A DNA stretch of 64,000 bases from Candidatus Kaiserbacteria bacterium (GCA_963699165.1 OY969413.1:404562-468561); one strand, 5' to 3'; positions 2,854-10,170 are shown, numbered from the stretch's first letter. The notes: generated from the sequence alone by a model not told the origin. Numbers and translations: made by a program.

Positions 2854-4320
2854 ATGGCACGGGAAGCTCGACCACCCGTCATCGCGGTGATGGGCCACAT
2901 AGACCACGGCAAATCGTCCCTCTTGGATTACATCCGGAAGGCCAATATTGTCGCGGGAGAAGCCGGCGGCATCACCCAGCACGTTGCCGCATATATTGCC
3001 GTGCACAACGGCCGCTCGATGACGTTTCTCGACACACCGGGACACGAAGCATTTAAAGCATTGCGGCAGCGCGGCGCACTCGCGGCCGATATCGCGATTC
3101 TTGTCGTCGCGGCCGACGAAGGCGTGATGCCGCAGACACTCGACGCTCTTGCCGCGATACGGGAGTCCGGCATTCCGTTTATCGTCGCCATCACGAAGAT
3201 TGATAAAAACAACGCGGACATCGAGCATGCAAAAAATTCCCTGCTAGAGCACGAAGTGTTTATCGAGGGCATGGGCGGCGACGTCGCCTACGCGCTTATT
3301 TCTTCAAAAACCGGCGAAGGCATTCCCGATTTGCTCGACCTTGTCTTGCTCACGGCCGACATCGGCGATATCACGGCCGACCCGGAAGCAACCGCAAGCG
3401 GCTTCGTTCTCGAGTCGACGCAGGACCCTAAGCATGGCGTCTCGGCGACGCTCATCATCAAAGACGGCACGCTCACGCAAGGCGGTTTCGTGGTCGCCGG
3501 CGATGCGTTTGCGCCGATTCGTTTTATCGAGGATTTCCGCGGCAAGCGCATCGAACAAGCCGGACCGTCTGCGCCGGTGCGTATTTCCGGATTTAATAAA
3601 TTGCCGGCTGCCGGTTCCCTTTTCAGCATCGCGGCGAATAAAAAAGAGGCCGAAGCGTTTGCCGTTGCGCACGCAAGGTCATCGGCGACTCCCGAGCGCA
3701 GCGCACTCGCGGAAGGCATCGCCGAACTTCCCATCATCATCAAAGCGGATGTCGCCGGTTCAATCGATGCAATCGCGCACGAACTCAAAAAGAGCACTCA
3801 TGAACGCGCCGTGATTCGCGTCGTTGCGACCGGCGTCGGCAGCGTTTCGGAGACCGATGTAAAAACGGCGCACGCGTCGAATGCGGTCATCATCGCGTTC
3901 AATGTTTCGACCGATTCGATTGCGAACGAGCTTGCGCTTCGCGACAACATTCAGATTCTGTCCTTCTCGATAATTTACGAACTTGCCGATGCAGTGAAAG
4001 AACTGTTTGCCGAGCGCGTGCCGTCAATCGAAGTGGAAAAAGAAACCGGCCGCGCGATGGTGCTCAAAGCATTTTCGTCGACCGCCAAAAAGCAGGTGCT
4101 CGGCGCGCGGTACGTGTCCGGCACGCTTGCGGTCGGCAACCGCGTCAAATTGCTCCGCAAAGACGTCGAAGTATCGCGCGGCAGCATCGTCAATCTGCAG
4201 CAGGCGCGCGCCGATGTGAAAGAGATTAAAACCGATGGGGATTTCGGTACGGAAATCGAGGCGCGCGAGCAAGCGATTTACGGCGATGAAATCGTCGCGT
4301 TTGTCGTACTGAAAACATGA
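2854..4320 (+). CDS. infB: Translation initiation factor IF-2, short form (488 aa, lacks N-terminal domains)
   Basis: G-domain motifs GHIDHGKSSLLD, DTPGHEAF and TKID, followed by the conserved IF-2 C-terminal domains. The stop overlaps the rbfA start (ATGA). Confidence 0.9.
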   Translation: MAREARPPVIAVMGHIDHGKSSLLDYIRKANIVAGEAGGITQHVAAYIAVHNGRSMTFLDTPGHEAFKALRQRGALAADIAILVVAADEGVMPQTLDALAAIRESGIPFIVAITKIDKNNADIEHAKNSLLEHEVFIEGMGGDVAYALISSKTGEGIPDLLDLVLLTADIGDITADPEATASGFVLESTQDPKHGVSATLIIKDGTLTQGGFVVAGDAFAPIRFIEDFRGKRIEQAGPSAPVRISGFNKLPAAGSLFSIAANKKEAEAFAVAHARSSATPERSALAEGIAELPIIIKADVAGSIDAIAHELKKSTHERAVIRVVATGVGSVSETDVKTAHASNAVIIAFNVSTDSIANELALRDNIQILSFSIIYELADAVKELFAERVPSIEVEKETGRAMVLKAFSSTAKKQVLGARYVSGTLAVGNRVKLLRKDVEVSRGSIVNLQQARADVKEIKTDGDFGTEIEAREQAIYGDEIVAFVVLKT

Positions 4321-4637
4321 GCGCGCCCGGAGCAAGCAGAAAAAACGACCGCGCGGCGGAAATCGTCGCTCGCGAAGCCGCGCTGTTTATTGCGCGCGAA
4401 GCCGGAACCGAATCGCTCATCACGGTTGTCCGCACCGAGAGCCGTGCGCACGGCGAGCACATTCTGGTATTTGTGAGCGTCTTCCCCATCGAGAAAGCGC
4501 GCGCGGCCGTTGCGTTTCTCGAACATCACCGCCATGAATTTTCCGACTATCTAAAAAGCCGCGTGCATATGCGAATCCCTCGCGTCGATTTTCTGCTTGA
4601 TAACGGCGAATCGGTAGGCGAAACGCCGAAAAGTTAG
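4317..4637 (+). CDS. rbfA: Ribosome-binding factor A
   Basis: 106-aa protein immediately after infB in the classic infB-rbfA arrangement, with a KH-like RbfA pattern (ITVVRTE...HILVFVSV...R.P.VDFLLD). Confidence 0.75.
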   Translation: MSAPGASRKNDRAAEIVAREAALFIAREAGTESLITVVRTESRAHGEHILVFVSVFPIEKARAAVAFLEHHRHEFSDYLKSRVHMRIPRVDFLLDNGESVGETPKS

Positions 4638-4651
4638 TAATATAGGAAAAC

Positions 4652-4723
4652 GGCCCGGTGGTGAAGTGGTAACACAGGGGACTGCAAATCCTCGATGCGC
4701 GGGTTCAATTCCCGCCCGGGCCT
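4652..4723 (+). tRNA. tRNA-Cys (GCA)
   Basis: Cloverleaf: acceptor GGCCCGG/CCGGGCC, anticodon loop CTGCAAA (anticodon GCA), T-arm CGCGGGTTCAATTCCCGC, discriminator U73 as expected for Cys. Confidence 0.85.
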
Positions 4724-4847
4724 CATGACATACGCGAAGCGGATGGCGGCGGGAATTGAATGCCGTAGCGATGTTCGGTGAGCTGACCGAACCGCGAGGC
4801 GGGGCCGAGAAAATGCTCGAGCGGCGGCGGGAGCATTATTCGTGGCC

Positions 4848-4887
4848 AATCCCGCCCGGGCCTCATGACATACGCGAGGCAGATGGT
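4848..4887 (+). repeat. Imperfect direct repeat of the tRNA-Cys 3' end plus 20 nt of its downstream flank (copy of 4706-4745)
   Basis: caatcccgcccgggcctcatgacatacgcgaggcagatgg versus caattcccgcccgggcctcatgacatacgcgaagcggatgg, about 38 of 41 nt identical. Resembles an attL/attR-like scar. Confidence 0.6.
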
Positions 4888-4942
4888 TGTCCGCATGTAT
4901 GCGGTTTAAAAATGGTAGACGCAAATATGGTATAGTGACTCT

Positions 4943-5485
4943 GTGAGGACCATATCGAAACATTGGGAGGAAAAGTCCTTGCGGAAGACCATTGCTTCAT
5001 CGCAAAGTGTTCGTGAAGCCTTGCGGAAAATGGGGTTGCGCGGGGCGGGAGGAAACTACCGCTACTTTGAAATGTTTGTTGAAAAGTATCATATCGATAC
5101 CGGCCATTTCCTAGGAAAGGGTTGGAGCAAAAACAAAAGCATTTCGAAAGAACCTGTTCGCAGTCTTGAGGAAATACTTGTTCCAAACAGTTATTTTTCG
5201 ATTCACCAACTGAAGAAAAGACTGTTCAAGGCCGGGCTTAAAATTCCAAAATGCGAGGAGTGCGGTTGGGCGAAAAGGAGTGCGGACGGCCGAATCCCCA
5301 TCGAGATTGATCATGTGAATGGAGATCATTCGGATAATCGAATCGAGAATCTTCGCATACTTTGCCCCAACTGTCACAGTATGAAGCCCACTCATCGTGG
5401 TAAAAATAAAAAAGCTCGCCAAGGTGGCGGAATGGTAGACGCACCGCTCTTAAAATGCGGAGAGGAAATAAAAACCCTCATGTGA
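4943..5485 (+). CDS. HNH endonuclease (homing-endonuclease-like), low GC
   Basis: HNH motif IEIDHVNGDHSDNRIENLRILCPNCHS. GTG start. GC about 47% against about 59% in neighbours. The ORF 3' end reads into tRNA-Leu(UAA), so the true stop is uncertain. Confidence 0.7.
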   Translation: MRTISKHWEEKSLRKTIASSQSVREALRKMGLRGAGGNYRYFEMFVEKYHIDTGHFLGKGWSKNKSISKEPVRSLEEILVPNSYFSIHQLKKRLFKAGLKIPKCEECGWAKRSADGRIPIEIDHVNGDHSDNRIENLRILCPNCHSMKPTHRGKNKKARQGGGMVDAPLLKCGEEIKTLM

Positions 5486-5506
5486 GTTCAAGTCTCACCC
5501 TTGGTA
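5418..5506 (+). tRNA. tRNA-Leu (TAA), type II with long variable arm
   Basis: Acceptor GCCAAGG/CCTTGGT, anticodon loop CTTAAAA (anticodon TAA), T-arm GTGAGTTCAAGTCTCAC, discriminator A. Long extra arm GAGG...CCTC. Confidence 0.65.
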
Positions 5507-5511
5507 CTGAA

Positions 5512-6330
5512 ATGGTTAATAAGCGCATCGGCATTTTTGATTCCGGCTTCGGCGGGCTGCATGTCATGCGCGCCATCGTTCGCGCACTTCCGCAGTATGA
5601 CTACGTCTATTTGGGCGATGCGGCGCGTGCTCCTTACGGCGACCGGCAGCAAAAGGAGATTTACAAGTTCACAAAACAGGCAGTCGAATTTCTTTTCGCG
5701 CACGATTGCGAGCTTGTCATTCTTGCGTGCAATACCGCGTCAAGCGAAGCGCTGCGCAATATTCAGAAATTATTCGTGCCAAAGTACGCGCCAGAAAAGA
5801 AAGTACTTGGCGTGCTCATCCCCGCAGCAGAAGAGGCATCACGGCGAAGCCGTGGAAAACAAATCGGTGTGCTCGCGACGCGCGGAACGGTTGAATCGCA
5901 ATCGTTTGTGCGCGAACTCGCGAAGCTCGACCCTGATATTCGAGTTTTCCAAAAGGAGTGTCCTCTATTGGTGCCGCTCATCGAAGCCGGCAAACAGAAC
6001 TCACCGAAAACCCGAGCCGTGCTTGAAAGGTATCTCCATCCGCTTCTGCGGAAAAATATTGACACGCTCATCCTCGGTTGTACGCATTACGGGATTTTGG
6101 AGAAGCAAATCAGAAACATTATCGGACGGGACATCGTCATCATTTCCGAAGCGCGCGCCGTGCCGAAAAAACTGAAAGCGTATTTGGAAAAGCATTCCGA
6201 TATCGAAGCTAAACTTTCGAAAAAAGGAACGGTGCACTTTTTTTCTACCGGCGATACTGGGACATTCGCGTTCATCGGCCGCAAATTTTTCGGAATGAAA
6301 ATCCAGGTAGAAAAAGCGTCACTTCGATAA
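5512..6330 (+). CDS. murI: Glutamate racemase
   Basis: Starts MVNKRIGIFDSGFGGLHV; MurI motifs DSGxGG and conserved Cys motifs (LACNTAS, ILGCTHY). Confidence 0.9.
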   Translation: MVNKRIGIFDSGFGGLHVMRAIVRALPQYDYVYLGDAARAPYGDRQQKEIYKFTKQAVEFLFAHDCELVILACNTASSEALRNIQKLFVPKYAPEKKVLGVLIPAAEEASRRSRGKQIGVLATRGTVESQSFVRELAKLDPDIRVFQKECPLLVPLIEAGKQNSPKTRAVLERYLHPLLRKNIDTLILGCTHYGILEKQIRNIIGRDIVIISEARAVPKKLKAYLEKHSDIEAKLSKKGTVHFFSTGDTGTFAFIGRKFFGMKIQVEKASLR

Positions 6331-6334
6331 GTTG

Positions 6335-6365
6335 TGCCGGGAAGAGGACTCGCCTCTCATTTGGC
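6335..6365 (-). repeat. Partial degenerate copy of the tRNA-Leu(TAG) 3' end (tRNA fragment or pseudo-tRNA)
   Basis: gtgccgggaagaggactcg is shared with the 3' end of the intact minus-strand tRNA-Leu at 6512-6530. The remainder diverges and the T-loop lacks TTC. Confidence 0.35.
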
Positions 6366-6511
6366 AAAATGATCTACTGGGTCGCGCTGCTACACTCGAG
6401 ACCTACGGCACCTCGTCGGTGCCGGCGGCCCGCGGTTCGAGTCCTCCTCCACCATGCACATATGCTTACTCGGAAAAGACCGGGCGAGTTATCCGATTTT
6501 TCCTGTCCCGG

Positions 6512-6593
6512 TGCTGGGAAGAGGACTCGAACCTCCATGGGTTGCCCCGTCTGCTCCTAAGGCAGGTGCGTCTACCAATTTCGCCATCCCAGC
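6512..6593 (-). tRNA. tRNA-Leu (TAG), type II
   Basis: Reverse complement gives GCTGGGATGGCGAAATTGGTAGACGCACCTGCCTTAGGAGCAGACGGGGCAACCCATGGAGGTTCGAGTCCTCTTCCCAGCA: anticodon loop CTTAGGA (TAG), T-arm GGAGGTTCGAGTCCTCT, discriminator A. Confidence 0.75.
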
Positions 6594-6713
6594 GCTTTGA
6601 AACTATACTATCATTTGCTATATTCTAATAATGCGCCTGTATCTTCGCGGATTCGATACAAGCGCTCGTTCGGCGAACAAGAATCCGAGGACGCGTTCTT
6701 GTTTCCTCACTTC

Positions 6714-6786
6714 GCGCCTGTAGCTCAGTTGGTAGAGCAGCTCCCTCTTAAGGAGACGGTCCCTGGTTCGAGCCCAGGTAGGCGCA
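6714..6786 (+). tRNA. tRNA-Lys (CTT)
   Basis: GCGCCTGTAGCTCAGTTGGTAGAGCAGCTCCCTCTTAAGGAGACGGTCCCTGGTTCGAGCCCAGGTAGGCGCA; anticodon loop CTCTTAA. Confidence 0.85.
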
Positions 6787-6858
6787 CAAAAACGGCGGCT
6801 TGACAGGCACGCTATAATATGTATATAATGCATTCGGACTGATGAAAGGAGTTCACAT

Positions 6859-7779
6859 ATGGCAGGCACGCCCCCACCGACACCGCCGGCCGGAACGCCG
6901 CCGACACACCCCGGCATTGGGGTCCTTGAACGCCGTCTCGGAGTCAAGATGCCCGATTTTTTGTATCGCGCGTCTTCGTCGAAAGTCGGGTGTTTCTTGC
7001 TGTGGGCATTTTTTGCAATAGAGCTGTTTTACGTTGTGCAAGACATCGCCGGCGTAATCGGCAGAACATTGCATCACATCCGCAACCCAGGCGCGACCCC
7101 GGAAGCGCACGAGGCCCACGGACGGCTGTGGAAGATTTCGTCGTGGGTCGTGGTCGGGGCCGCAATCTTTGCGTGGTTGATGCTGCGACCAGCGCTCGAC
7201 GCGCATCCCTCTGGCGGGACGGTCGCAAATTGGTACGCGACCAACCCGCTCGTCGTTTCGCTTTTTTTCTTGCCGTTACTAGCAACAATGCTGCTAACGA
7301 CACGGAAGCTGTGGACCTCCGTTGGAGTGGCAGCATTGTTTACACTCCTGCCACTGCTGTTCGCCTTAATCGCGGCGCCGTTTGCTCCGGAGAGAGCGCC
7401 GAGTCCGGAGACCACAACTGCGCCGACCGATCATGCCAACGCGGCCCCATTTGCTCCGGAGAGAGCGCCGAGCCCGGAGACCACAGCTGCGCCGACCGAT
7501 CATGCCAGCAGTGCCAAAAAAACTTGCACCATCGCGACCCCGTGTACCGTAGATGTACCGGTTACCGGGGAGTCGAAACCCATCGTTCCCGTACCGGTCG
7601 GTTACCATCCATACTATCTGGCTCCAGCATCGAGCTACATGGAGCACAGAACGTATGATAAGGAGTCAGGCATGCCGGACTGCAAGGGAACGTGTCCTCC
7701 GGGTCCAGGGGGACAGACAACCTTGTTAAACAAGACAGCAGAGCCCCTGAAAATGGGGTACTACTTCTTGCCGAACTAA
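6859..7779 (+). CDS. Membrane protein with proline-rich N-terminus and an internal 20-aa tandem repeat (APFAPERAPSPETTxAPTDHA, two copies)
   Basis: 306-aa ORF with several TM segments; the true start may be the internal MPDFLY at about 6949. Cys-rich C-terminal tail. Confidence 0.5.
   Translation: MAGTPPPTPPAGTPPTHPGIGVLERRLGVKMPDFLYRASSSKVGCFLLWAFFAIELFYVVQDIAGVIGRTLHHIRNPGATPEAHEAHGRLWKISSWVVVGAAIFAWLMLRPALDAHPSGGTVANWYATNPLVVSLFFLPLLATMLLTTRKLWTSVGVAALFTLLPLLFALIAAPFAPERAPSPETTTAPTDHANAAPFAPERAPSPETTAAPTDHASSAKKTCTIATPCTVDVPVTGESKPIVPVPVGYHPYYLAPASSYMEHRTYDKESGMPDCKGTCPPGPGGQTTLLNKTAEPLKMGYYFLPN
7378..7497 (+). repeat. 60-bp tandem duplication (two copies, about 90% identical) inside the 6859..7779 CDS
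   Basis: gcgccgtttgctccggagagagcgccgagtccggagaccaca... repeated immediately afterwards; in-frame. Confidence 0.8.
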
Positions 7780-7857: not shown

Positions 7858-8133
7858 CTACTGTGAATTCGAGAGCGGAGCAATCGGCGGTAAACCGAAT
7901 GAATTGAGCGCGACGTTAATGATGCCGTACGCGCCGAAGATGATGACCAATCCGACAAGTCCCCACAAGATTGCCGAGCGGCCCTCGAGGCGACCTTTTT
8001 CATCGCCCGATTTGCGAATGAATTCAAACACGCCCCAAATGAAGACCACGAAAGCGACCGCGGACAGGAGCAGGATAATCGGGTCGATAACCTGCGTCAC
8101 TACTTTCGCGAGAAACGCTCTTAGAACGGTCAT
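7858..8133 (-). CDS. Small two-helix membrane protein, paralog 1 of 6 (VirB2/TrbC-pilin-like candidate)
   Basis: 91 aa; shared family motif ...VPxIxxxAFxxFxWG...(charged loop)...LWGxxGxxxxxSxWGLVN.... Its start overlaps the stop of paralog 2 (TAATG). Confidence 0.55.
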   Translation of the reverse strand: MTVLRAFLAKVVTQVIDPIILLLSAVAFVVFIWGVFEFIRKSGDEKGRLEGRSAILWGLVGLVIIFGAYGIINVALNSFGLPPIAPLSNSQ

Positions 8134-8510
8134 TAGCTGCCGACCTGAACGCCCGCCTTCGGCAGACCGGTTGACGGCCCAGTATTATTCCCGAAAGAAA
8201 TAGTGCCCGTGAGAATGTTCACGAGACCCCAGATGGAGACCATGACGAAGAACCCGATAAGGCCCCAGAGCATGAGATTCTTCCCCTCCTCGCGCTTATC
8301 TTCTTTGCCGGCTCCCAAAATGAACGTCACGAAGACGCCCCAAAGGAAGACAATGAACGCAATCGCAAAGATAACCGGAACGATTATGTTATTGATGGTA
8401 TTGATAATGAACGAGCCGACATCGGACACGTTGTTAATCTGGGCAAACGAGACGAGCGGCAATGCAAACAACGCGAGCGTACCTGAAGTAAGAGCAAGTG
8501 CTTTTTTCAT
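8133..8510 (-). CDS. Small two-helix membrane protein, paralog 2 (signal peptide MKKALALTSGTLALFALPLVSFA)
   Basis: Internal ATG at 8510 yields a 125-aa protein with a signal peptide plus the family core (IIVPVIFAIAFIVFLWG...LMLWGLIGFFVMVSIWGLVNIL). Confidence 0.55.
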   Translation of the reverse strand: MKKALALTSGTLALFALPLVSFAQINNVSDVGSFIINTINNIIVPVIFAIAFIVFLWGVFVTFILGAGKEDKREEGKNLMLWGLIGFFVMVSIWGLVNILTGTISFGNNTGPSTGLPKAGVQVGS

Positions 8511-8591
8511 AATGAAGATAAGTGGGTAACGGGATAATTGTAACGTCTTTGAAACGTCGGTCAATACACCGACGCACAATATGTGGATATG

Positions 8592-8894
8592 CTACAAAGT
8601 CGGCGGCTTTGGAGCGGTGGTGTTGGCGCTTGATGGAATCAGCGTGCTTTGAGCCATGTTCACCAACCCCCATACGGAAATCATGATAACAAAACCGATT
8701 ATGCCCCAGAGAGCGAATTGATGTCCTTCTTTTCTTTTCGACTCGTCGCCGCCCGAGAAAATATAGGCGCGAGCGATTCCGAACAAAAACATGAGGAATG
8801 CAATCGCGATTATGAGCGGAACAAGGTATGAATTGATGATTGTGATAACGCCGGAAGGACCGGTCGTATAGGATTGAATGAAAGAGAGGTTCAT
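8592..8894 (-). CDS. Small two-helix membrane protein, paralog 3
   Basis: Starts MNLSFIQSY; core LVPLIIAIAFLMFLFG...FALWGIIGFVIMISVWGLVNM. Confidence 0.55.
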   Translation of the reverse strand: MNLSFIQSYTTGPSGVITIINSYLVPLIIAIAFLMFLFGIARAYIFSGGDESKRKEGHQFALWGIIGFVIMISVWGLVNMAQSTLIPSSANTTAPKPPTL

Positions 8895-8907
8895 GGGGAT
8901 TGAAATG

Positions 8908-9312
8908 CTATTGGCACGCGTACATCGGATTCCCGTTTGCGTCGGAGCCGGTTCGCACGCACGAGCCGGTGGCACAGCCGCCGCCGCATCCGGCACCGAC
9001 GCCGGAACTGCTTACGGGACTAAGCGGCAAGGTTACCGACTGTCCCTGCAATCCGAACGTATTCGCGATTACATTCACAAGGCCCCAGAGTGAAATCATA
9101 ACTGCAAAACCGACTATTCCCCACAAAACGAGCCGATGCCCTTCTTCGATTTTTCCGGAATCGCCGCGGGAGAAGATGTATGCCTCCGCGATTCCGTACA
9201 GAAATACCAGGAACGCCGCAGCAAAAATGAGCGGCACTAGTACATAATTAATAATCCAAATAAACTGTTGCGCGATGCAGGCGATACCGACGGACGAGCT
9301 GCAAGTTGGCAT
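8908..9312 (-). CDS. Small two-helix membrane protein, paralog 4, with Cys/Gly-rich C-terminal tail
   Basis: Core LVPLIFAAAFLVFLYG...LVLWGIVGFAVMISLWGLVNV; tail GAGCGGGCATGSCVRTGSDANGNPMYACQ. Confidence 0.55.
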   Translation of the reverse strand: MPTCSSSVGIACIAQQFIWIINYVLVPLIFAAAFLVFLYGIAEAYIFSRGDSGKIEEGHRLVLWGIVGFAVMISLWGLVNVIANTFGLQGQSVTLPLSPVSSSGVGAGCGGGCATGSCVRTGSDANGNPMYACQ

Positions 9313-9329
9313 GGGCTCAGTATATCAAG

Positions 9330-9587
9330 CTATTGCGCCGGGGCGATGCCGAGTGTGGATAAAAGCATATTAACCAATCCCCATACCGAGAGAAGAACGA
9401 CGAGGCCGAGAATGCCCCATAGCGCGAATTGTCTGCCGCTCGCCCGCGCCTTTTCATCATTTCCATGAAGGAAAAAGTAATCCTGAAGACCCCAGATAAA
9501 TGCGGCAAATGCCAACGCAAAAATGACCGGCACGACGACGGTGCTTAAGACGCTCACGACGCTGGTCACAAATTGGGCGAACGTCAT
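9330..9587 (-). CDS. Small two-helix membrane protein, paralog 5
   Basis: Internal start MTFAQFVTSVV; core VVPVIFALAFAAFIWG...FALWGILGLVVLLSVWGLVNM. Confidence 0.55.
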   Translation of the reverse strand: MTFAQFVTSVVSVLSTVVVPVIFALAFAAFIWGLQDYFFLHGNDEKARASGRQFALWGILGLVVLLSVWGLVNMLLSTLGIAPAQ

Positions 9588-9588
9588 G

Positions 9589-10170
9589 TTAACTGCCCGT
9601 CGATAGCGCCTGCGCGGTCGCCTGGATGCCAAGGGCTATTCCCTGCGCGCCAAGCAAAATGAGCGCGCCGATGACCGTCCAGAGAAGCGCGTTTCTTGCT
9701 TGAGACAGCTTTGAGTCATTCCCTTGCGCCGTGACAAAGAGAAAACCGACATACACGAGCATCAAAACGACGATTATTGAACCGATTTGCACGACAAAAC
9801 CGAGAATGCTGGTCAATAACGAATTGAGGGTCGTGCCTGTCCCGAGCGGATTGGTGAGGGTGACAGTCGGAGCGGTATATCCTGATCCGCCTGAACCACC
9901 CGTGTTGCCTGATCCGCTTGAACCACCCGTGTTGCCTGATCCGCTTGAACCACCCGTACCGGATTGCCCACCGGAACCCCCCGTTCCTTGCGATGCGCAA
10001 ATCCCATTTGTGCAAACGCCGGATTCGCAATCAGATCCGAGAGTACACGTTGAACCGTCAGGCGAACCGAACCCTCCGCCCGTTTGTGCAAACACAACCG
10101 CGGGTACCGTATTACCGACGATTGCGAGATTCAAAAGAAAAAAAGATAGGACGACTATTTTTAATTTCAT
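9589..10170 (-). CDS. Paralog 6: signal peptide + Cys-rich + Gly/Ser-repeat N-terminal extension fused to the family two-helix core
   Basis: 193 aa: MKLKIVVLSFFLLNLAIVG..., CTLGSDCESGVCTNGICAS, (GGSSGSGNT)n, then ...VVLMLVYVGFLFV...ALLWTVIGALILLGAQGIALG. Its start overlaps the stop of the upstream solute-binding-like gene (ATGA). Confidence 0.55.
   Translation of the reverse strand: MKLKIVVLSFFLLNLAIVGNTVPAVVFAQTGGGFGSPDGSTCTLGSDCESGVCTNGICASQGTGGSGGQSGTGGSSGSGNTGGSSGSGNTGGSGGSGYTAPTVTLTNPLGTGTTLNSLLTSILGFVVQIGSIIVVLMLVYVGFLFVTAQGNDSKLSQARNALLWTVIGALILLGAQGIALGIQATAQALSTGS
9840..9962 (-). repeat. 27-bp tandem repeat, about three copies, encoding GSSGSGNTG units in paralog 6
   Basis: cctgatccgc(t/c)tgaaccacccgtgttg repeated three times on the plus strand. 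Confidence 0.7.

Follow-up and report, generated by a model that had tools for sequence, protein, structure and literature searches.

The window analysed here is a stretch of 64,000 nucleotides (nt) from a Candidatus Kaiserbacteria bacterium (GCA_963699165.1 OY969413.1:404562-468561), read on one strand and numbered from its first letter. It carries a tRNA cluster preceded by the genes coding for IF-2 and RbfA, and the order IF-2, RbfA, tRNA-Cys, tRNA-Leu(UAA), tRNA-Lys and tRNA-Leu(UAG) is kept widely among relatives. The IF-2 gene 5' of the cluster was used as a query and retrieved 80 species-representative genomes, every one from Patescibacteria and chiefly labelled Paceibacteria, Parcubacteria or Kaiserbacteria. 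The spacer between tRNA-Cys and tRNA-Leu is 4-100 nt long in most relatives, and the 693 nt found in the window therefore represent an expansion. As seen by comparison with relatives, this spacer is made of two unrelated modules, a small structured element behind tRNA-Cys, hereafter the trailer element, and a cassette bearing an HNH endonuclease gene that runs into tRNA-Leu(UAA). The region 4600-5520 is present with identical sequence in a metagenome-assembled genome at NCBI (GCA_049279115.1) and in two independent read-archive assemblies, and the locus is therefore not an assembly artefact. Its features are the following.

4652-4724, plus strand: intact tRNA-Cys(GCA), found by ARAGORN and scored at 65.6 bits by the Rfam tRNA model
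4710-4746, plus strand: copy 1 of a direct repeat, made of the final 15 nt of tRNA-Cys and a 22-nt spacer (repeat search and fold)
4733-4741: mini-hairpin CGCGAAGCG, within the 22-nt spacer of repeat copy 1
4747-4849, plus strand: core of the trailer element, type I, short form, 103 nt (alignment, covariance model and minimum free energy fold)
4748-4760, plus strand: block antisense to the T-loop and T-stem of tRNA-Cys
4762-4800, plus strand: hairpin-A branch with tandem G.A, followed by the conserved GAGGCGGGGCCG motif
4803-4847, plus strand: hairpin B, with GUGGCC at its end in the window copy
4850-4886, plus strand: copy 2 of the direct repeat, made of a sense copy of the tRNA-Cys 3' end (4850-4864) and the repeated 22-nt spacer (4865-4886, 2 mismatches)
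4891-4907, plus strand: palindrome CCGCATGTATGCGG with TTT after it, separating the trailer element from the HNH cassette, read from the sequence
4911-4942, plus strand: left end of the HNH cassette, a tRNA-Leu pseudo-fragment followed by a scrambled continuation to about nt 48
4943-5485, plus strand: HNH endonuclease open reading frame (ORF) of 180 amino acids (aa) with a GTG start (Pfam and PHROG)
5252-5386, plus strand: HNH/zinc-finger core, residues 104-148
5418-5507, plus strand: uninterrupted tRNA-Leu(UAA), found by ARAGORN and scored at 56.1 bits by Rfam

A terminator scan did not call the palindrome at 4891-4907. An earlier note on this DNA had pointed out that the 3' end of tRNA-Cys and its flank recur 125 bp downstream, and this is borne out: 4710-4746 and 4850-4886 are identical at 35 of 37 positions, a level matched in 0 of 100 shuffles. 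With one indel the repeat extends back to CAAT in the T-loop, and copy 2 starts 125 nt past the tRNA end. A search for further copies, which the note had suggested, was run in the 64-kb window and found no third one. The note took the repeats for attL and attR, the attachment sites of an integrase-type island that had entered the tRNA-Cys 3' end and was later mostly deleted, with the HNH gene as surviving cargo, and tRNA attachment sites do classically have a direct repeat that starts in the T-loop, passes the end of the tRNA and continues into the flank. However, the two copies enclose 103 nt with a [G + C] content of 66%, no ORF and no integrase remnant, and the HNH gene lies downstream of the second copy, therefore outside the segment that the repeats bound. 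Moreover, the earlier note did not include a perfect inverted repeat (13/13; 4704-4716 and 4748-4760) that is antisense to the tRNA-Cys T-arm and is left unexplained by an integrase. The 37-nt repeat is a sense copy of the tRNA-Cys end plus a duplicated spacer, and both tRNA-derived blocks stem from tRNA-Cys, from its T-loop to its 3' terminus.

Including its sense copy, which has a 1-nt deletion, the whole trailer element of the window spans 4747-4864. Its minimum free energy fold is a three-way junction in which 4742-4754 pairs with 4850-4864. Pairing between the antisense and sense blocks closes the element with a helix that replicates the T-stem of the tRNA itself, and in the long forms the acceptor stem as well, the core taking the place of the T-loop. 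In the family, the core is a three-way junction that starts with ...UCGAAAGCCGGAG and continues with the variable hairpin A, CGAGGCGGGGUCG and the long hairpin B with GUGACC at its end. The repeated 22-nt spacer may be a truncated second tandem unit or a long target duplication; tandem units are present in loci L081 and L052, so that in the window this spacer may begin a second unit that is truncated at 4886.

The stretch behind tRNA-Cys has homologs in the same position in L004, L006 and L013, and no HNH gene is present in L006 and L013. RNAalifold applied to these three and the window copy yields 33 consensus pairs, 11 of which are compensatory. A covariance model (R1) made from the same four sequences, which scores the window copy at 140 bits, recovered 35 members in 895 kb of Paceibacteria loci. 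In the alignment of the 35 members, 92% of the cells are paired compared with 67% after shuffling, double changes occur in 30 of the 33 pairs, and the covariation score is 0.573 versus 0.175 in shuffled alignments (0/500 as high) and 0.07-0.11 for slid partners; the alignment was fitted to R1 and hence favours the structure of the model, a point against these counts, although the differences are wide. At one position, 30 of the 35 members have a G.U pair, so the fold fits the tRNA-bearing strand only. The trailer element is thus, with high confidence, real as a conserved structured family, and the DNA between the two repeats, where the remnant of an island would be expected, is a full-length member of it.

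A co-oriented tRNA lies 11-147 nt upstream of 34 of 38 elements. Twenty-four elements bear antisense and/or sense blocks matching the neighbouring tRNA, which is Cys, Leu-UAA, Leu-UAG, Lys, Tyr or Trp, and the terminal blocks vary with this neighbour. The antisense 5' block covers the T-loop, the 3' strand of the T-stem and often the acceptor strand, while the sense 3' block reproduces the same tRNA from about C56 to the discriminator. The length of the duplication is variable among elements (17-67 nt). In a model-free scan of 411 tRNAs, 43 proved to be followed within 300 nt by a copy of their final 17 nt with no more than 1 mismatch; the identity most frequently spans 19 nt, which corresponds to a start at C56. 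Control scans of the same 411 tRNAs found no upstream copy of the 3' end in sense or antisense and no downstream sense copy of the 5' end; a downstream antisense copy of the 5' end was found once and an upstream sense copy twice, and the latter two are taken to be pseudo-tRNA-Leu fragments of HNH cassettes. The element lies behind approximately 10% of the Paceibacteria tRNA genes sampled.

These data also bear on the nature of the repeat. Among 478 tRNAs searched up to 8 kb downstream, 47 copies of the 3' end were found, 44 of them at 55-250 nt and the farthest at 725 nt, and no kilobase-scale island of the kind supposed by the earlier note was present. The note had opposed an integration scar to a feature standing behind all tRNA-Cys genes of relatives and not associated with insertions, and the outcome lies halfway: 4 of the 11 close relatives have a copy following tRNA-Cys, copies also follow five other tRNA species, and this small element always accompanies them. 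What stands of the proposed scar is a real repeat at a tRNA 3' end, tied to an insertion-like element; what does not stand is its reading as attL/attR of a largely deleted island.

Several other observations were made on the family. The tRNA-Cys genes of L007, L195, L200, L081 and L049 have odd T-loops (GUGCGAAUCC, GCGCACAUCC) in place of GUUCRAAUCC, and the antisense blocks of their trailer elements track these odd T-loops. Elements occur in tandem or in clusters in L057 (8226-8737 and 345-462), L081 (4875-5085), L052 (8247-8560) and L168 (2848-3190), with a maximum of four per 13-kb locus. Many tRNAs that have a downstream 3'-end copy but are not R1 members carry a second core type, present in L119, L087, L086, L024, L033, L035, L037, L026, L067, L052 (7960-8140), L063 and L155. 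This type has the same three-way layout as type I and is not detected by R1. It consists of an antisense T block, GAAAAGGUUGCC, a hairpin, GACAACCUGUACUG and a 5-bp hairpin with a UGUAA loop (U plus a GNRA-type GUAA), after which the sense copy begins at G53/U54.

The element was compared with known RNA families. Rfam 15 has no match on it, either in the window (4300-7000, E <= 1) or in five loci with long forms (E <= 0.5); besides tRNA, the only rows are sub-threshold matches of mascRNA-menRNA and Plastid-ycf2 on tRNA genes and a greA leader elsewhere in L074. We rejected tmRNA, T-box, Y RNA/YrlA, signal recognition particle RNA, known ribozymes, group I and II introns and HEARO/omega RNA, which have no Rfam match here and an unlike anatomy. 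A phage origin was also rejected: among 2.9 million viral contigs only 1 of 30 pattern matches is real, the one in L168, and the phage collection gave no blastn match. No tRNA is present in the 3.3 kb of L168. Two copies in L081 have a near-identical hairpin B, but recent transposition was rejected because their hairpin A and flanks differ and L080 has the same hairpin B. In the literature, we found no description of the trailer element or of the HNH/tRNA-Leu arrangement.

The second module, the HNH cassette (about 4908-5417), comprises an old tRNA-Leu 5' fragment, an HNH ORF without its own stop codon and the functional tRNA-Leu(UAA). Both profiles that the earlier note had proposed for classification pass their cut-offs, HNH_3 (PF13392) with 31.0 bits (cut-off 24.8) and HNH (PF01844) with 27.6 bits (cut-off 21.4), and phrog_10822 matches at 8e-43. 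The protein has a helical N-terminal domain (residues 1-95). In an alignment of 32 homologs that are 51-80% identical, the pattern CxxC...DH..N...N...CxxCH is invariant, including the catalytic and zinc-binding residues C104, C107, D123, H124, N136, C141, C144 and H145, and W8 is conserved. The AlphaFold model has a predicted local distance difference test (pLDDT) score of 80.6, is confident at residues 1-155 with a strand-strand-helix at 121-146, and falls below 50 in the tail; the top Foldseek matches are McrA HNH domains and are weak (E = 2.7e-3 to 3e-2, template modelling score about 0.25). Exact-protein look-ups with the 180-aa version and with a 168-aa version starting at TTG gave no match.

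Gene callers choose a shorter ATG start (P0001, 151 aa); the conservation of W8 and neighbouring residues favours the GTG at 4943. The sequence GGGAGGA lies ahead of an in-frame TTG at 4979, yet the residues upstream of this TTG are conserved in the homologs. TGGTATAGT (4928-4936), which looks like an extended -10-like element, ends 7 nt before the GTG, and no Shine-Dalgarno sequence is present, therefore the HNH message could be leaderless. A sigma-70 promoter scan found no consensus promoter for the gene. At its 3' end, the ORF runs into tRNA-Leu(UAA) as the earlier note had stated: its last 68 nt are the 5' part of the tRNA, which encodes residues 159-180, predicted to be disordered. The C-terminal tails of the homologs, for example RRGGEIGRHATLKTL, are likewise the translated 5' half of tRNA-Leu(UAA). 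The low [G + C] content seen in the note is confirmed, with 45.5% for the ORF up to the tRNA and 55.4% for the window, which places it among the lowest 0.35% of 475-nt windows. Rfam gives neither a group I intron nor another intron family at the locus, tRNA-Leu and its flanks are uninterrupted, and the ORF stands outside any intron or intein. Its description as a free-standing gene resembling homing endonucleases is supported.

A metagenome scan with the alignment of 32 homologs yielded 80 loci, 73 of which have a tRNA-Leu(UAA) in the same orientation that begins between -62 and +124 nt relative to where the HNH match ends; among these 73, the ORF terminates within the tRNA in 49. The upstream neighbour is variable, either tRNA-Cys in one or the other orientation, other tRNAs, or none, so to the HNH gene tRNA-Leu is the constant partner and tRNA-Cys is not, contrary to what cargo of an island at tRNA-Cys would show. 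Moreover, the element is present without the gene in L006 and L013, the gene without the element in L008, L084, L195, L199 and L200, and only 5 element matches occur in 362 kb of HNH loci. A linkage between the element and the HNH gene was rejected on this last count, and the view of the gene as the remnant of a deleted island finds no support, its distribution being independent of the element and its position outside the repeats. The gene is present in only 7 of the 68 species representatives with tRNA-Leu(UAA), interleaved with close relatives without it, and the copy in L004 is degenerate, retaining residues 51-162 only.

The left end of the cassette retains a trace of tRNA-Leu that was absent from the earlier note. 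In the window, nt 14-26 of tRNA-Leu (D-arm) are reproduced exactly (13/13; 4911-4923 and 5431-5443). Pseudo-tRNA-Leu 5' fragments lie 20-75 nt upstream of the HNH ORF in L140, L146, L109, L155, L098, L074, L127, L084 and L199; they begin at nt 1 and reach nt 24-26, or about 46-48 in the best cases, with matches such as 24/26 in L140 (z = 10.5) and z = 7.9 in L146. In L199 (about 1150-1272), where the HNH protein is 82% identical, tRNA-Cys is inverted relative to the HNH gene and the pseudo-fragment is perfect over nt 1-26 (GCCGAGGTGGCGGAATGGTAGACGCA).

The tRNA-Leu(UAA) genes differ with the presence of the HNH gene. Among 143 such genes, pair 30:40 of the anticodon stem is C:G in 62 of the 81 linked to an HNH gene and in 10 of the 62 that are not (Fisher p = 2.8e-13, kinship ignored), and it is G:C or G:U in 51 of the 62 HNH-free genes. 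Among the close relatives of the window, C:G is found in 3/3 genes with and 0/8 without the HNH gene. The window itself has the anticodon stem CCGCU/UGCGG, of the HNH-linked C30:G40 type. In L155 the pseudo-fragment keeps the GA-CUU type and the adjacent intact tRNA is CA-CUU. The tRNA-Leu of L008 and L004 resembles that of distant hosts (L018 and L077) and not that of their own close relatives. The window tRNA-Leu(UAA) also has a U31.U39 mismatch (5444-5460), non-canonical in the Rfam alignment, most relatives having A31:U39.

The gene most closely related to the HNH ORF among annotated homologs codes for gp149 of Gordonia phage GodonK, which is 42% identical over 92% of the protein. The gene (L194 1471-1979; MK620899.1 80721-81229) lies between tRNA-Leu and tRNA-Glu in the tRNA cluster of the phage, and this position therefore marks the HNH family as kin to the free-standing HNH genes of phage tRNA clusters. 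Like the window ORF, gp149 overlaps the downstream tRNA, tRNA-Glu in this case, by 10 nt. A related match is found in Gordonia phage Forza beneath tRNA-Tyr. The free-standing homing genes, such as SegB and mobE of T4, the HNH genes of T5-like phages and GodonK gp149, share with the window ORF the small size of an intergenic nuclease gene, a sporadic distribution and a fixed site by a tRNA. Unlike them, the window family is chromosomal in Patescibacteria and bound to tRNA-Leu(UAA), usually lacks its own stop codon, so that translation ends within the tRNA gene, and has a duplicated 5' tRNA fragment and a compensated 30:40 flip in the linked allele. The group I intron of tRNA-Leu(UAA) with intron-encoded endonucleases, known in cyanobacteria and plastids, targets the same tRNA species, but in the window the tRNA is not interrupted, no group I intron is detected and the HNH gene lies upstream of the tRNA. 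PMC2790892 summarises the general mechanism: the allele without the endonuclease receives a double-strand break, and gene conversion follows and takes in flanking DNA.

The HNH family fits a free-standing homing endonuclease specific for tRNA-Leu. Such an enzyme would cut HNH-free tRNA-Leu(UAA) genes of the G30:C40 type, and repair by gene conversion would copy the HNH gene along with its linked C30:G40 tRNA allele, which would resist cleavage. The displaced tRNA 5' part of the recipient would stay upstream as a pseudo-fragment and may serve as left homology arm. The candidate specificity predicted from the alleles is that GA-CUUAAAA-UC is cut and CA-CUUAAAA-UG is spared. The target gene is presumably single-copy and essential. 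Cleavage, its position and homing itself are deduced from sequence comparison, and some data weigh against this scheme: 19 of the 81 tRNAs with an HNH gene retain G30 and 10 of the 62 without it have C30; the genes with and without the HNH gene were in part sampled differently, and phylogeny may therefore be a confounder; and the intact tRNA beside the HNH gene still holds any site 5' of nt 27.

The trailer element was also compared with known systems. Prophages and islands that target tRNAs and are bounded by attL/attR share with it a repeat that starts in the T-loop and covers the 3' end, leaving the tRNA intact; here, in contrast, the repeats are 103 nt apart, integrase and cargo are lacking, an extra antisense copy is present, and the arrangement recurs behind about 10% of tRNAs, nearly always at 55-250 nt. 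Miniature inverted-repeat transposable elements (MITEs) resemble it in size (100-170 nt), inverted ends, flanking direct repeat, multiple or tandem copies and patchiness, whereas the ends and the apparent target duplication of the trailer element copy the upstream tRNA and not a fixed transposase-binding sequence, its core has RNA-type, strand-specific covariation, and its subtypes are conserved over very distant hosts. The fixed terminal inverted repeats, short fixed target duplication and empty sites that define MITEs were not found.

MALAT1 mascRNA, tmRNA and 4.5S RNA, a substrate of RNase P, are expressed or processed through tRNA or tRNA-like handles. These RNAs and the dicistrons of tRNA and small nucleolar RNA (snoRNA) are, like the trailer element, structured RNAs that are co-oriented behind a tRNA or have a helix resembling the acceptor or T-stem. 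The handle of the trailer element differs in being not a tRNA or T-arm but a helix whose two strands copy the 3' end of the neighbouring tRNA, one inverted and the other direct. The Rfam models of tmRNA, Y RNA, T-box and mascRNA do not match the element; mascRNA-menRNA reaches 24 bits on tRNA-Cys, below its gathering threshold of 42.5. The references of PMC12045711 include papers on plant tRNA-snoRNA dicistrons. The same article describes TIGR-Tas arrays, which have dual-strand guides, occur in Parcubacteria, have 36-nt units and adjoin tas genes; the trailer element was not assigned to them because of this unit length and the neighbouring tas genes. An analogy with IS110 bridge RNA or TnpB omega-RNA was also rejected, as one target segment is covered by antisense and sense blocks alike and the intact tRNA would itself become a target.

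Other features of the window and of related loci touch neither module. An ORF of 306 aa beside the tRNA cluster (6859-7779) has no Pfam match, contains a Pro/Thr-rich stretch duplicated in tandem at about 7330-7470 (FAPERAPSPETT[T/A]APTDHA) and is conserved in L001-L002. It is followed on the minus strand (7858-10170) by five small genes in a row with T4SS_pilin (PF18895) matches, according to the annotation of the identical NCBI contig (L001 13542-15854). In L061 (7818-9058), the entire tRNA cluster (Cys, Leu-UAA, Lys, Leu-UAG) is succeeded by a mirror-image copy and by an IF-2 fragment in inverse orientation; the arrangement is either a large palindrome or an assembly fold-back.

Taken together, the anatomy, conservation, covariation, distribution and allele associations described above are probably best explained by two independent additions to the tRNA cluster, a folded RNA trailing a tRNA and a homing cassette specific for tRNA-Leu. 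For the trailer element, our preferred though tentative reading is that of a small RNA capped by a tRNA mimic. The element would be co-transcribed behind the tRNA, and its tRNA-like closing helix would allow RNase P, RNase Z and the CCA-adding enzyme to free and cap a stable small RNA; tandem units would arise, or be deleted, by unequal exchange between the tRNA end and its copy. A functional RNA is favoured by subtypes that track the tRNA type over hosts with only about 45% IF-2 identity, by a hairpin B that is almost identical in L080 and L081 while the remainder differs, and by the Lys-type members, which retain the core and its position despite having no tRNA-derived blocks.

A number of points weigh against the tRNA-mimic reading. 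The same Lys-type members are devoid of the tRNA-derived blocks, and the window copy is a short form in which two parts of the L004 and L006 long forms are missing, the anti-acceptor block and an additional hairpin (hairpin 0). The conserved hairpins could work as DNA. The sense copy is nearly identical to the tRNA, more closely than a closing helix needs, and this calls for concerted evolution, selection for mimicry or its repeated re-creation through mobility. In many members a terminator-like hairpin lies between the tRNA and the element, which argues against plain read-through. Finally, the 64-kb window has a single copy of the element.

The main alternative is a non-autonomous mobile element, similar to MITEs or short interspersed nuclear elements, that inserts at T-loop position 56/57 and duplicates its target from this point to a varying distance beyond the tRNA. 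Target-primed synthesis on an RNA template is a conceivable route, in which the sense copy would anneal to the nicked target and the antisense block would act as guide or closing arm. We regard this alternative as rather unlikely. In its favour, the repeat always fits the local tRNA and mostly begins at C56; in the window, L055 and L052 the duplication runs through unique spacer to the antisense block, in the manner of a 37-43-bp target-site duplication; the element is patchy among close relatives; a few copies stand in the opposite orientation; sense copies have decayed in many members; and at least two core types have the same flanks. On the other hand, no transposase, reverse transcriptase or recombinase is linked to it, a plain target duplication cannot yield an antisense block fitted to each tRNA, and a single real occurrence was found in the viral contigs. 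The persistence of subtypes at about 45% IF-2 identity and the shared hairpin B of L080 and L081 look like purifying selection on old orthologous copies. No clean pair of empty and filled sites came out of a search for closely related genome pairs or close HNH-bearing relatives, a result that counts against mobility and against the tRNA-mimic reading alike.

It is also conceivable, but improbable, that the tRNA-derived blocks themselves are the functional part, as a tRNA-specific switch or as a decoy mimicking the acceptor and T-stem. The antisense block would pair with the 3' half of the tRNA (precursor, fragment or gene), with the sense copy as a built-in competitor, or the mimicry would be aimed at tRNA-targeting nucleases or tRNA-binding proteins. 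Both blocks indeed follow the tRNA sequence nearly perfectly over six tRNA species, the same G-to-A acceptor change is common to the tRNA and the sense copy of L013, and an identity beyond what the closing helix needs suggests selection for mimicry. However, the Lys-type and some Tyr-type members keep the core without the blocks, the sense copies of the window, L004 and L074 have indels, and a folded tRNA is a poor pairing partner.

For the HNH gene, the alternative to homing is that of a non-mobile gene, either domesticated or ancestral to the tRNA cluster (e.g. a processing or defence nuclease), that was often lost, the stem difference being a lineage marker. We hold this for decidedly improbable. 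Long vertical inheritance with many losses is the objection it raises to homing, as identity to the window protein roughly follows IF-2 identity (79% with 72%, 58% with 59% and 51% with 46%), and the catalytic residues are under strong purifying selection. It is at odds with the scattered occurrence of the gene among close relatives without it, with the degenerate copy of L004, with the atypical [G + C] content, with a duplicated and decaying tRNA 5' fragment as a mark of insertion, with the likeness of the tRNA-Leu of L008 and L004 to that of distant hosts, and with phage relatives that occupy tRNA clusters in the same way. The deleted island, to which the foreign-looking [G + C] content of the HNH gene would lend itself, is already contradicted by geometry and distribution and retains very little probability.

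A partial tRNA duplicate beside a nuclease gene is commonly annotated as an island scar, and here this would be doubly wrong. The HNH part is a variant of known free-standing homing genes; if homing is true, the family would be a clean, testable case in a cellular genome with a tRNA gene as target, in which the cassette appears to bring along both a resistant tRNA allele, through a compensated flip of an anticodon-stem pair, and a portable homology arm made from the leftover tRNA fragment. The trailer element may represent a novel type of RNA element linked to tRNAs. It is quite possible, without our being able to call it likely, that trailer elements, with their two or more core types and a closing helix of antisense and sense copies of a tRNA 3' end, form a class of bacterial RNA element not described before, acting as small RNAs capped by a tRNA mimic or as selfish elements homing to the T-loop. 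In the selfish alternative, the element would be RNA-guided or RNA-templated and would re-template its own ends on each tRNA target at 56/57. Either reading, if true, would add a new kind of tRNA-linked genetic element, found behind about one in ten of the sampled Paceibacteria tRNA genes, and whether small RNA, switch or decoy, or selfish element, each would show a new use of tRNA genes in the reduced genomes of Patescibacteria.

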